Part shown: positions 1,373 through 4,436 of the stretch, in pieces
How the letters are laid out: the number at the start of each line of letters is the position of its first letter
Numbering within the stretch: the first letter of the stretch is position 1
Source: a virus
Taxonomy: Duplodnaviria; Heunggongvirae; Uroviricota; Caudoviricetes
IMG/VR virus record: IMGVR_UViG_2724679238_000010
Strand: one strand, 5' to 3'
Length of the DNA: 4,510 bases
Position numbers and translations under genes: made by a program
The notes under the pieces: generated by a model
Told to the model about the DNA's origin: nothing
Database searches by the model: none
What the model saw: only the letters and a program-made list of their open reading frames with translations

Positions 1373-1798
1373 TTAGTGCATCACCACGGCATTTCCTGCC
1401 GGGCCACCGCGATTAATCTGGTTGAAACCAGCAATTGCCACCGCAATAAAATCATCTGCATCCCTCACCAGCCGCTCCCGCGTCTCCAGCAGCTCCCGAA
1501 AATAGGCTGAACTGTGACTGCGCATTCGGGCCACCAGCAGAGGCGGCATTGCCTTTTCGATCGCTGGTAACAACGCCTGAATTTTTTTAACCGCATCAGG
1601 GGTGTCTTTCTCCACCCAGCGGAAAATTTTCTGAGTATTGCGAGCCAGGGCTTCAGGATGGCTGTCGTCATATAATTCCGGGAACGTCATACCCAGCTCA
1701 AAATAAGCCCGGGTTATTTCAGCCGCCGGAACTTTTTCACCGTCCGGATGCGCCCAGGCATTCATCACCATGCGGATGTGCTCATGCTTGATTATCAT
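1373..1798 (-). CDS. ydaT: YdaT-like protein (CII-like regulator, toxic on overexpression in Rac-type prophages)
   Basis: 141-aa ORF, ATG at 1796..1798, with AGGAG SD (rc of 1807..1811) 8 nt upstream. The protein (MIIKHEHIRMVMNAWAHPDGEKVPAAEITRAYFELGMTFPELYDDSHPEALARNTQKIF...) matches my recollection of the E. coli YdaT family. It sits directly downstream of the cro-like gene. Symbol is from recalled similarity plus synteny. Confidence 0.8.
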   Translation of the reverse strand: MIIKHEHIRMVMNAWAHPDGEKVPAAEITRAYFELGMTFPELYDDSHPEALARNTQKIFRWVEKDTPDAVKKIQALLPAIEKAMPPLLVARMRSHSSAYFRELLETRERLVRDADDFIAVAIAGFNQINRGGPAGNAVVMH

Positions 1799-2063
1799 GA
1801 ATCAAGCTCCTGGAAAGTGGTTGTGTTAACGTTTTGGTATCTTCCAGCTCGGGCCAAATATTCATCCAATCAAAAGGCCTTAGTTGCTGACGTGTAACTT
1901 CACCATTACTGGCTCGCTCAATAAGGACACATAACGATGCCCCTAACACTTGACCTTTACTCAATGCCTTTCTTAGATAACCGATGCTAGTACCACACTC
2001 ACATGCAAACATACGCTGTTCATCTGACGAAAGAGAATTGAGAAATATTCTTAATTCTTCCAT
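1782..2063 (-). CDS. ydaS: YdaS-like Cro-type HTH transcriptional regulator
   Basis: 93-aa ORF, ATG at 2061..2063, with AAGGAG SD (rc of 2069..2074) 5 nt upstream. The segment GTSIGYLRKALSKGQVLGASLCVLIERASNGEVTRQQLRPFDW fits the YdaS/Cro-like family pattern (ERA..GEV...LRP.DW). It is the first gene of the operon divergent from the repressor and overlaps ydaT by 17 nt. Confidence 0.8.
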   Translation of the reverse strand: MEELRIFLNSLSSDEQRMFACECGTSIGYLRKALSKGQVLGASLCVLIERASNGEVTRQQLRPFDWMNIWPELEDTKTLTQPLSRSLIHDNQA

Positions 2064-2081: not shown

Positions 2082-2172
2082 TACGGTCAAGAATACCCAC
2101 AGGTAAACAAAAGTCAATACCTATGGGTTGTTTACCTTGCGGTAATCGCATCTATTATTTACCTATGGACAA
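2082..2172. promoter_or_regulatory. divergent promoter/operator region between the cro-like gene and the repressor gene
   Basis: Three copies of a dyad motif: O1 2093..2106 ATACCCACAGGTAA; O2 2117..2130 ATACCTATGGGTTG; O3 2159..2172 TTACCTATGGACAA. O1 and O2 are 24 bp centre to centre. Leftward promoter candidate: -35 TTGACT (rc of 2112..2117), 16-bp spacer, -10 TATTCT (rc of 2090..2095). Rightward promoter candidate: -35 TTTACC 2131..2136, 16-bp spacer, -10 TATTAT 2153..2158, ending 6 nt before ATG 2165. Confidence 0.5.
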
Positions 2173-2625: not shown

Positions 2626-2664
2626 TTACCCATAGGTATTTACTTTTTGAATACCTATGGGTAT
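2626..2664. promoter_or_regulatory. operator-like dyad pair 3' of the repressor gene (OL analogue); may also form a hairpin
   Basis: 2626..2639 TTACCCATAGGTAT and 2651..2664 ATACCTATGGGTAT, 25 bp centre to centre, the same motif as in the divergent promoter region. ACCCATAGGTAT and ATACCTATGGGT are reverse complements, giving a 12-bp stem with an 11-nt loop followed by a T-rich tract (atcctttatttc). Confidence 0.45.
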
Positions 2665-3545: not shown

Positions 3546-3882
3546 ATAGATTTCCTTCTTGGTTATTCGGGATAAGAAGGATACCACCTCGCCTGACGTG
3601 GTTAAAAGCAGGCACACAACACGAAAGCGCACGGCGAAGTTCGTCTCACTGTACGGTGTCGTTAAATTTAATTCGACCGTGCGCTTCCGGTTGTGGCAAC
3701 CCGCGAAATGGCGCGGCGGTAAGTATGGCGGGGTTATTCCTTCCCCGTTGAGGACACCGGGTTGTCAGGTTGACCATACGCTTAAGTGACAACCCCGCTG
3801 CAACGCCCTATGTTATCAATTTTCTGGTGACGTTTGGCGGTATCAGTTTTACTCCGTGACTGCTCTGCCGCCCTTTTTAAAG

Positions 3883-4047: not shown

Positions 4048-4236
4048 ATGGAAACGTTATTACCAAACGTTAATACGTCTGAAGGTTGTTTTGAAATTGG
4101 TGTCAGAATCAGTAACTCTGCATTTACTGAAGATGCCATTAACAAGAGAAAACACGAACGGGAGTTATTAAATAAAATATGCATTCTTTCAATGCTGGCA
4201 CGTTTACGCCCGATGCAAAAAGGATGCTGGCAATGA
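4048..4236 (+). CDS. hypothetical small protein, 62 aa
   Basis: ATG 4048 with GAGGA SD (4036..4040) 7 nt upstream. Protein METLLPNVNTSEGCFEIGVRISNSAFTEDAINKRKHERELLNKICILSMLARLRPMQKGCWQ. Its stop TGA (4234..4236) overlaps an in-frame ATG (4233..4235) of the next ORF. The track ORF starts at a GTG (3943) lying inside the inverted-repeat region, which I consider non-coding. Confidence 0.4.
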   Translation: METLLPNVNTSEGCFEIGVRISNSAFTEDAINKRKHERELLNKICILSMLARLRPMQKGCWQ

Positions 4237-4436
4237 ATACAGCAATTGCTCTCACTCTGATAGTTTTTCTTAATACGGGCGAGCCTGTTGACCCGGTTAT
4301 TGACATTTACGGTTCAATGAAAGAATGCACGGCTGCCGCAGCGGAACAGAAAACTCCCGGTAACTGTTATCCGGTCGATAAAGTTATTCATATGGACAAT
4401 AACGAAATCCCGGCAGGACTTAAAACAGCACCGTAA
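4179..4436 (+). CDS. hypothetical small protein with signal-peptide-like or membrane-anchor N-terminus (85 aa; alternative start 4233 gives 67 aa)
   Basis: ORF MHSFNAGTFTPDAKRMLAMNTAIALTLIVFLNTGEPVDPVIDIYGSMKECTAAAAEQKTPGNCYPVDKVIHMDNNEIPAGLKTAP. Basic residues (KR) precede a hydrophobic stretch (AIALTLIVFL), followed by a polar region with two Cys. Start is ambiguous: ATG 4179 has only a distant GGAG; ATG 4233 has AAAAAGG 9 nt upstream and forms an ATGA overlap with the preceding ORF. Confidence 0.45.
   Translation: MHSFNAGTFTPDAKRMLAMNTAIALTLIVFLNTGEPVDPVIDIYGSMKECTAAAAEQKTPGNCYPVDKVIHMDNNEIPAGLKTAP

Follow-up and report, generated by a model that had tools for sequence, protein, structure and literature searches.

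A predicted lambdoid OR/OL switch with WTACC-YRYR-GGTAW dyads on both sides of a prophage repressor gene

What do the short inverted repeats between two divergent genes of a prophage control, and which protein binds them? The question is raised by positions 2088 to 2172 of a stretch of 4,510 bp from the virus record IMGVR_UViG_2724679238_000010, which is part of a prophage and was analyzed here over its full length (the window). Open reading frame (ORF) listing and family searches identify the window as a lambdoid immunity and replication module, in which the gene for a 139-amino-acid (aa) repressor diverges from a cro-like gene. An initial annotation had read the interval as a lambda-style divergent switch with dyads as operators over the leftward promoter, and this reading receives strong support from the comparative data presented below. 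The interval is very probably the right operator (OR) region of the module, with the repressor predicted to bind WTACC-YRYR-GGTAW dyads there and in a left operator (OL) region beyond its own gene, as in a switch of the lambda/Qin type.

Dyads on both sides of the repressor gene

The family consensus WTACC-N4-GGTAW (WTACCNNNNGGTAW) matches the 4,510 bp exactly four times, compared with 0.01 matches expected, at O1, O3, OL1, and OL2 (Table 1), and O2 is a weaker fifth site. When the dyad of the initial annotation, ATACC-N4-GGTAT, is searched with up to 2 mismatches, five matches (starting at 2093, 2117, 2132, 2626, and 2651) are obtained, compared with a mean of 1.46 in shuffled sequences, and none of the 200 shuffles reaches five. 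Three of the dyads sit in the 101-bp gap between the divergent cro-like and repressor genes, at -72, -48, and -33 from the repressor ATG and with spacings of 24 and 15 bp; O2 and O3, 15 bp apart from center to center, are separated by a gap of 1 bp. The initial annotation had placed three copies of the dyad within 2088-2172. Two of these, O1 and O2, stand as described, 24 bp apart and over the leftward promoter, while the third, proposed at 2159-2172, gives way to the exact site at 2132-2145. That site within the interval, together with the exact sites at 2626-2639 and 2651-2664 outside it, had not been listed.

The two divergent promoters were identified as matches in a sigma-70 consensus scan. 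O1 overlaps the -10 element and spacer of the leftward, PR-like promoter, and O2 meets its -35 element by one base; the TCAATACC junction (TTGA on the minus strand) beside O2 is kept in homologs. The -10 element of the repressor promoter ends 6 nt before ATG 2165, and the repressor mRNA is therefore predicted to be leaderless and to start at this ATG. Likewise, a TAGAAT-like -10 element ends 6 to 7 nt before the ATG in 30 of the 35 homologous loci scored (see below), the -35 element being the TTTACC of the third dyad, and no Shine-Dalgarno sequence is visible before the repressor ATG in these homologs. Relative to the predicted start site at 2165, the center of O2 is located at -41.5. A terminator-like hairpin at 2138-2150, with a stem of 5 bp inside O3 and the promoter spacer, is regarded as a chance structure.

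One genome per GTDB species was scanned, which provided 35 loci encoding the N-terminal domain of the repressor. The loci span Enterobacterales, Burkholderiales, and Xanthomonadales, and the host genera include Edwardsiella, Klebsiella, Pantoea, Yersinia, Brenneria, Aeromonas, Paraburkholderia, Herbaspirillum, Alcaligenes, Stenotrophomonas, and others. Conservation of the dyads across homologous prophages, proposed in the initial annotation as a check, is borne out, with three OR dyads at approximately -74, -49, and -34 bp from the repressor ATG in 30 of the 35 loci. Taken individually, the O1 equivalent is found at -72 to -76 in 34 of the 35 scored loci and the O3 equivalent at -33 to -36 in 32, and the O2 equivalent lies at -48/-51 throughout the family with a right half that is almost always degenerate (GGTTA or GGTCA). 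The distance between O3 and O2 is 15 bp in coliphage mEp043, phage CharmingMan, and the window, and throughout the family the two sites abut in this manner, roughly on opposite faces of the helix. Further on, past the repressor gene, a pair of sites 25 to 26 bp apart with an embedded rightward promoter recurs in 26 of the 35 species loci (28 of 38 once the window, mEp043, and CharmingMan are added).

Among 161 scored sites, consisting of O1, O2, and O3 of the 35 loci and 56 OL sites, position counts show T2, A3, C4, C5, G10, G11, T12, and A13 to be near-invariant (G11 is G in 155 and T12 is T in 153), while the central four bases vary with a preference for Y-R-Y-R; WTACC-YRYR-GGTAW is the better form of the consensus. 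A second set of 81 close relatives, from IMG/VR contigs and an Escherichia coli O111 genome, encodes an identical N-terminal domain. In this set, variable columns account for 1 of 30 in the half-sites, 9 of 12 in the N4 spacers, and 7 of 29 in the remainder of 2088-2158 (Fisher's exact test, half-site versus N4, P = 4.5e-6; half-site versus other columns, P = 0.026). The half-sites of O1 show a single substitution in a single relative, and its N4 varies. These patterns suggest that the dyads are under purifying selection specific to the half-sites.

The dyads also covary with the DNA-binding domain. The repressor of phage Tritos has only its C-terminal domain in common with that of the window (74% over 50 aa), and its N-terminal domain is different; the repeats on either side of its gene are likewise different, of a GTAC type. 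The CII-like gene of Tritos is 93% identical. Rac and Qin have repeats of their own on both sides of the repressor gene, of a TAGGC type and of the form TTAGY-N4-RCTAA, respectively. It is from such comparisons that the dyads are assigned to the repressor as its operators.

Table 1. Positions of candidate operators, predicted promoters, and genes in the window
Feature	Position	Strand	Description
Candidate operator O1 (OR1-like)	2093-2106		ATACCCACAGGTAA; overlaps -10 element and spacer of leftward cro-like promoter
Candidate operator O2 (OR2-like)	2117-2130		ATACCTATGGGTTG; degenerate right half GGTTG; abuts -35 elements of both divergent promoters
Candidate operator O3 (OR3-like)	2132-2145		TTACCTTGCGGTAA; exact match; left half forms -35 element TTTACC of repressor promoter
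O3 of the initial annotation	2159-2172		TTACCTATGGACAA; lone TTACC half-site between -10 element and ATG; not a conserved operator
Candidate operator OL1	2626-2639		TTACCCATAGGTAT; exact match; 3' end overlaps -35 element of rightward PL/dicBp-like promoter
Candidate operator OL2	2651-2664		ATACCTATGGGTAT; exact match; overlaps spacer and -10 element of rightward promoter
PR-like promoter of cro-like/CII-like operon (predicted)	2117-2090	minus	-35 TTGACT (2117-2112), 16-bp spacer, -10 TATTCT (2095-2090)
PRM-like repressor promoter (predicted)	2131-2158	plus	-35 TTTACC (2131-2136), 16-bp spacer, -10 TATTAT (2153-2158)
PL/dicBp-like promoter (inferred)	2639-2667	plus	-35 TTTACT (2639-2644), 17-bp spacer, -10 TATCCT (2662-2667)
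TTGATT-N6-AATCAA dyad	1788-1805		TTGATTATCATGAATCAA; 0 mismatches; end of cro-like gene, over start codon of ydaT-like gene
DnaC-like gene fragment	3-365	minus
O-like replication gene	372-1349	minus	Internal iterons
YdaT-family CII-like gene	1373-1798	minus
YdaS-family Cro-like gene	1782-2063	minus	93 aa
Repressor gene	2165-2584	plus	139 aa
DUF1391 (YdfA-like) gene	Ends at 2999	plus
125-aa ORF	Between DUF1391 gene and DicF	plus
DicF small RNA	3822-3873	plus	Rfam RF00039, 76.7 bits
DicB	4048-4236	plus
DUF1482 (YdfD-like) gene	After DicB	plus	Spans 4048-4436 together with DicB

The repressor and alternative readings of the dyads

The repressor matches phrog_5736 over its full length (E value of 1e-69) and consists of an N-terminal helix-turn-helix (HTH) domain of the mEp043 cI type (approximately aa 1-72) and a C-terminal, DicA-like helical domain (approximately aa 89-138). 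Its first 75 aa are 73% identical to mEp043 cI and 69% identical to the repressor of CharmingMan, and the domain characterized by MDKYExRR...SYVSRMLYPEGKxGKKRIAD is present at its start. Neither Pfam nor NCBIfam contains a model for this DNA-binding domain. The NCBIfam DicA model (PRK09706) gives 24.3 bits, compared with a cutoff of 101, and covers residues 84-136 only, a score that does not make the protein a full-length member, and BLASTP against DicA of K-12 aligns residues 89-134 with 33% identity over 46 aa (E value of 1e-7). An S24 peptidase domain, present in the mEp043 and CharmingMan homologs, is not found in the 139-aa repressor.

In an AlphaFold2 model (mean confidence score [pLDDT] of 84, above 92 in the N-terminal domain), a four-helix HTH domain with helices at residues 3-18, 23-30, 34-40, and 54-63 is followed by a disordered linker (residues 77-88) and a C-terminal helical hairpin. 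Foldseek matches overlap the model over approximately 70 residues with root mean square deviations (rmsd) of 1.3 to 4 Å, none of them at an E value of 0.001 or below. The best PDB match is 5d50 (72 columns, rmsd of 1.3 Å, 26% identity, E values of 1e-3 to 5e-3), and weaker matches are C.Esp1396I, HigA, and the N-terminal domain of TP901-1 CI (E values of 0.06 to 0.6). On this model, the N-terminal domain is predicted to have an XRE or lambda-repressor-like HTH fold. Sequence searches of the PDB returned only Z-alpha winged-helix matches with subthreshold E values of 0.07 to 0.6, which were judged to be noise.

Comparison of 2165-2584 of the window with 1198-1617 of locus L003 and 935-1342 of locus L121 shows the repressor to be a mosaic of domains, with the N-terminal domain as in mEp043 cI and the C-terminal domain as in Tritos CI (74%) and DicA (33%). 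The recombination joint is within the disordered linker at approximately aa 77-88. When the 75-aa domain was used as the query of an exhaustive HMMER search, 624 cluster representatives were retrieved at an E value of 1e-3 or below, in nearly all of which the domain is N-terminal and followed by C-terminal parts of varied length; a word-indexed protein search with the domain alignment gave 37 matches, mostly fragments with uninformative names. A GenBank note of mEp043 likens its cI to the CI protein of 933W, a similarity that presumably lies in the S24 domain. The operators of 933W are 15-bp sites about a central base pair (PMC3317979). An immunity of the 933W type was rejected, as these 15-bp operators differ from the dyads and 933W was not among the matches when the N-terminal domain was searched by tblastn.

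If the repressor binds the dyads, the pair at 2626-2664 would be the OL of the switch, with a rightward promoter inside it. This PL-like promoter falls below the threshold of the scan and was therefore placed by register with homologs, in which GGTA[TTGACa]-17-GG[TATATT] occupies the equivalent positions relative to OL1 and OL2; it would drive the operon of the ydfA-like gene, DicF, and DicB, and is analogous to dicBp of Qin (PMC10448788). The pair could, on the other hand, serve chiefly as an intrinsic terminator behind the repressor gene, with no more than an incidental likeness to the OR dyads. A perfect hairpin with a 16-bp stem and a 5-nt loop is predicted for OL1 paired with OL2 (-22.6 kcal/mol, z = -6.3), followed by CCTTTATTTC, and the hairpin with its T-rich tail (2626-2675) is marked as terminator-like by a scanner. 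Moreover, the 41-nt spacer between the repressor stop codon and OL1 contains no hairpin or T-run in the window or in the O111 relative, whereas among the 15 homologous loci in which no more than 450 nt separate the stop codon from OL1, 13 have a T-run of 5 to 9 in a stably folding spacer. We nevertheless regard a primary role as terminator as unlikely. The arrangement of two sites with invariant half-sites, a variable N4, and embedded -35 and -10 elements recurs in 26 of the 35 species loci; most of the homologous pairs form no strong hairpin (-5.7 to -17.9 kcal/mol in the 15 loci) and have a separate terminator ahead of them. Copies of a palindromic site are near-complementary by construction, and the U-tract here is interrupted.

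The two roles may coincide in this lineage. In the window, the spacer of OL1 is an exact complement of that of OL2, and in O111, the sole close relative folded, the two are complementary with one G-U pair; together with the absence of a canonical terminator before OL, this raises the possibility, doubtful as it is, that the OL pair doubles as an intrinsic terminator for the leaderless mRNA of the repressor. The idea is speculative because of the near-complementarity of any palindromic copies and the interrupted U-tract. If it is true, a single 39-bp element would stop repressor transcription, leaving DicF and DicB silent, and act as a PL controlled by the repressor.

For the OR region, the initial annotation had proposed a repressor of the RacR type with operators that start at 2093, 2117, and 2159, the last of them over the start codon. 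In favor of the third site, its TTACC (2159-2163) and the TATG that comes next are similar to the left half-site and spacer in O2 and OL2, and 2159-2172 is invariant in the 81 close relatives; however, so is nearly all of 2146-2170. The sequence at 2159-2172 has 4 mismatches to ATACC-N4-GGTAT, and its right half, GACAA, is part of the coding sequence ATG-GAC-AA and lacks the near-invariant G11 and T12. In none of the 34 other loci is this position, with its 3 to 7 mismatches there, occupied by a dyad or even by the left half-site, and an exact, positionally conserved site is found at 2132-2145 instead. The similarity to RacR is absent as well, the best BLASTP match to RacR of K-12 having an E value of 2.3 over 7 residues. 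A third operator over the start codon of a RacR-type repressor gene is thus quite improbable. The motif core CCTATGG, described as containing the ATG of both candidate repressor starts, does occur with an ATG at both 2121-2127 and 2162-2168, and of the two starts only ATG 2165 is supported. A start at ATG 2123, which would give a protein of 153 aa, was rejected. Homologs begin with MDKYE, the Prokaryotic Genome Annotation Pipeline (PGAP) selects 2165 in the O111 relative, and the O2 spacer departs from TATG, mostly as CACA, at one or both bases of the ATG at 2123-2125 in 79 of the 81 close relatives, which therefore lack this upstream ATG; these observations together fix the start at 2165.

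A further question is whether the dyads are targets exclusively of the Cro-like YdaS-family protein or the CII-like YdaT protein and not of the repressor. The Cro-like protein (Pfam YdaS_toxin with an E value of 9e-6, under the curated cutoff; phrog_35) is 70% identical to the protein in the cro position of mEp043 and 47% identical to its CharmingMan counterpart. Of the 35 species loci, 29 contain a homolog (tblastn E value of 1e-3 or below), and the dyads are present in every one of these. Five Klebsiella loci in which a Cro homolog is not detectable by tblastn also lack O2, but they keep O1 (5 of 5), the -34 site with 1 mismatch or less (3 of 5), and the OL pair (4 of 5), which argues that the motif follows the N-terminal domain of the repressor. 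The YdaT family, for its part, recognizes TTGATT-N6-AATCAA, which is separately present at 1788-1805. In characterized lambdoid switches, the repressor and Cro share operators (PMC8630535, PMC10448788). Binding by the Cro-like or CII-like protein to the exclusion of the repressor is, on these grounds, very improbable; by analogy, the Cro-like protein probably binds the same dyads as the repressor, with the opposite order of preference.

The same Klebsiella loci (L007, L010, L011, L013, and L014, at approximately 2425-2500) carry a conserved TTTGCTATATTTT segment in place of the Cro homolog and the middle operator. They may represent a variant of the switch that is wired in another way and possibly works without Cro.

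A chance origin of the dyads, as palindromes in AT-rich DNA between genes, is hardly credible, as only the short length of the motif speaks for chance and the comparative data, namely the enrichment, the conservation of position across orders of Proteobacteria, and the half-site-specific purifying selection, already refute it.

Genes surrounding the immunity region

The order of the genes in the window matches dicC-dicA-ydfA...dicF-dicB of Qin. DicF, DicB, and the DUF1482 gene lie downstream of the PL-like promoter, which would place inhibitors of cell division under the control of the repressor, as in Qin. The immunity segment (1790-2760) is approximately 97% identical to its best matches and is covered to 80% or more in at least 822 of 5,426 complete E. 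coli genomes, E. coli O111:H- 11128 among them.

The dyad at 1788-1805 is, by analogy, a predicted binding site of the CII-like YdaT protein. TTGATT-N6-AATCAA is the footprinted high-affinity OM site of YdaT of CP-933P and has an equivalent location there (PMC9986795). Its presence suggests a PRE-like establishment promoter nearby. The end of the cro-like gene and the beginning of the ydaT-like gene overlap by 17 nt (1782-1798), which suggests translational coupling. Within the O-like replication gene, an iteron of 30 nt (TCAATATTTGACGGGTCAACCGTTGAGGGG) is repeated in 2.6 copies at 925-1002, presumably constituting the replication origin by analogy with lambda O.

A leader of approximately 165 nt (CCCCGCCCCACAGAA...GTTAAGTAGCCAGCCCGAGGCGTA...) precedes the DUF1391 gene (2680-2846 in the window, 1746-1880 in L003, and 1620-1500 on the minus strand in L004). 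It is kept in Tritos and Rac despite their differing repressors and operators. No Rfam family matched the leader at 2680-2846; candidate identities are an RNA element and a small upstream ORF starting at 2769.

Proposed circuit and comparison with known switches

In the circuit that we propose, the repressor would bind the 14-bp dyads through its XRE-type HTH domain as a dimer or higher oligomer, presumably assembled via its DicA-like C-terminal domain. Bound at O1, and aided by O2, it would shut the leftward promoter of the cro-like and CII-like genes. At O2, centered at -41.5, it would be well placed to turn on the promoter of its own leaderless mRNA; PRM is activated from an equivalent position by lambda CI bound at OR2. 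At O3, over its own -35 element, it would bring about negative autoregulation at high levels. Occupancy of OL1 and OL2 would repress the early operon with the ydfA-like gene, DicF, and DicB, as at lambda OL/PL and dicBp of Qin. That the sites exist, that their sequence and position are conserved, and that they covary with the DNA-binding domain is observed directly; we infer the binding protein, the order of occupancy, the activation from O2, the leaderless start, and the route of induction. As the S24 self-cleavage domain is absent, induction would probably proceed via an antirepressor and not by RecA-mediated cleavage, as with DicA and Rem (PMC10448788) and the structural neighbor 5d50. Short repressors controlled by antirepressors are a known lambdoid variant (PMC10448788).

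Several points weigh against this reading. The case that connects the repressor with the dyads, homologs included, is built on sequence evidence, and the promoters are known as matches to a consensus, that of the PL-like promoter being weak (8 of 12). O2 and O3 are 15 bp apart with a gap of 1 bp, compared with 23 to 24 bp in lambda, so that the lambda scheme of occupancy may not apply here, and the way in which O2 serves activation and O3 serves autorepression may be different from that in lambda. Nearly all loci with the motif also have the Cro-like protein, and binding by the repressor can be separated from binding by Cro only through the related Klebsiella loci. The OL pair could act mainly as a terminator in this lineage. 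Finally, no paper giving a WTACC-N4-GGTAW operator was found in a literature coverage that is incomplete, so that a prior description is possible, and with the same coverage no published analysis of the mEp043 or CharmingMan operators came to light, the papers found on mEp043 not concerning its operators.

The predicted switch is a further lambdoid OR/OL system with a specificity undescribed in the literature found. The analysis provides an operator consensus, WTACC-YRYR-GGTAW, and a full OR/OL map for a repressor family without a Pfam model. The family is widespread, both in the complete E. coli genomes noted above, O111 strains included, and in the 624 cluster representatives from across the Proteobacteria. 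The map allows a prediction of the prophages and phages that have the same immunity as phages of the mEp043 type and points to the repressor that would silence DicF and DicB in these prophages. It also redirects attention from 2159-2172 to 2132-2145 and 2626-2664 as operator targets. The gain lies in annotation and testability, and no new principle is involved.

With lambda, whose OR geometry is well established, the window shares divergent repressor and cro genes around a tripartite operator, a spacing of 24 bp between O1 and O2, an O1 that lies over the lytic promoter, and an O2 centered near -42 of the repressor promoter. It further shares a second set of operators beyond the repressor gene, before an early operon reading in the same direction as that gene, a repressor mRNA that is leaderless (as predicted in the window), and a gene for a CII-like activator after cro; the leaderless cI and the OL/OR logic of lambda are summarized in PMC8630535. 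The window differs from lambda in its 14-bp dyads of 5-4-5 geometry (versus 17-bp sites), the distance between O2 and O3 (15 versus 23 bp), two sites in OL instead of three, a repressor without the S24 cleavage domain, Cro-like and CII-like proteins of the YdaS and YdaT families, and a DNA-binding domain unrelated in sequence to that of lambda CI. Of the features that define a lambdoid switch, divergent genes with a repeated dyad, operators over both promoters, and a second operator set are recognizable in the sequence; RecA-stimulated autocleavage by S24 is not expected of a 139-aa repressor that ends in a DicA-like domain.

The SPC32H Rep protein of a Salmonella phage (PDB entries 5d50 and 5d4z), the best structural match to the modeled N-terminal domain, similarly has no cleavage domain and is inactivated by an antirepressor (according to the title of the PDB entry); the sequence searches of the PDB gave no significant match between it and the repressor of the window. 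CP-933P (with PaaR2) and Rac (with RacR) resemble the window in their genes for YdaS-family Cro-like and YdaT-family CII-like proteins, and the window contains the exact YdaT OM site of CP-933P at the equivalent gene junction. Their repressors are unrelated, and their operators are of a GTTTAGTAA type (CP-933P) or TAGGC-type repeats (Rac). The CP-933P operators were footprinted in OR and predicted in OL (PMC8630535).

Qin has the cro-like gene, short repressor, DUF1391 gene, DicF, DicB, and DUF1482 gene in the same order as the window. The repressors are of similar length (139 aa in the window and 135 aa in DicA) and have homologous C-terminal domains, and both systems have operators of 5-4-5 geometry on either side of the repressor gene. 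They differ in the N-terminal DNA-binding domain and in the half-site, which is TTACC in the window and TTAGC/TTAGT in Qin. DicA acts as the repressor of dicBp, and Rem is the antirepressor that counters it (PMC10448788).

mEp043 and CharmingMan, in turn, differ from the window in the C-terminal domain of their 222- to 228-aa repressors, which is of the LexA/S24 type, in a canonical terminator before OL, and in an early left operon that begins with N; in addition, mEp043 has a CII of the lambda type. They agree with the window in the motif, number, and spacing of the operators. The dyads before the repressor ATG are TTACCTGTAGGTAA, ATACCCATAGGTTA, and TTACCGGCAGGTAA in mEp043 and TTACCCACAGGTAA, ATACCCACAGGTAA, and TTACCAACAGGTAA in CharmingMan, and the arrangement of three OR dyads at 25/15 bp and two OL dyads 25 to 26 bp apart matches that of the window. 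mEp043 and CharmingMan probably share their immunity specificity with the window, or nearly so.

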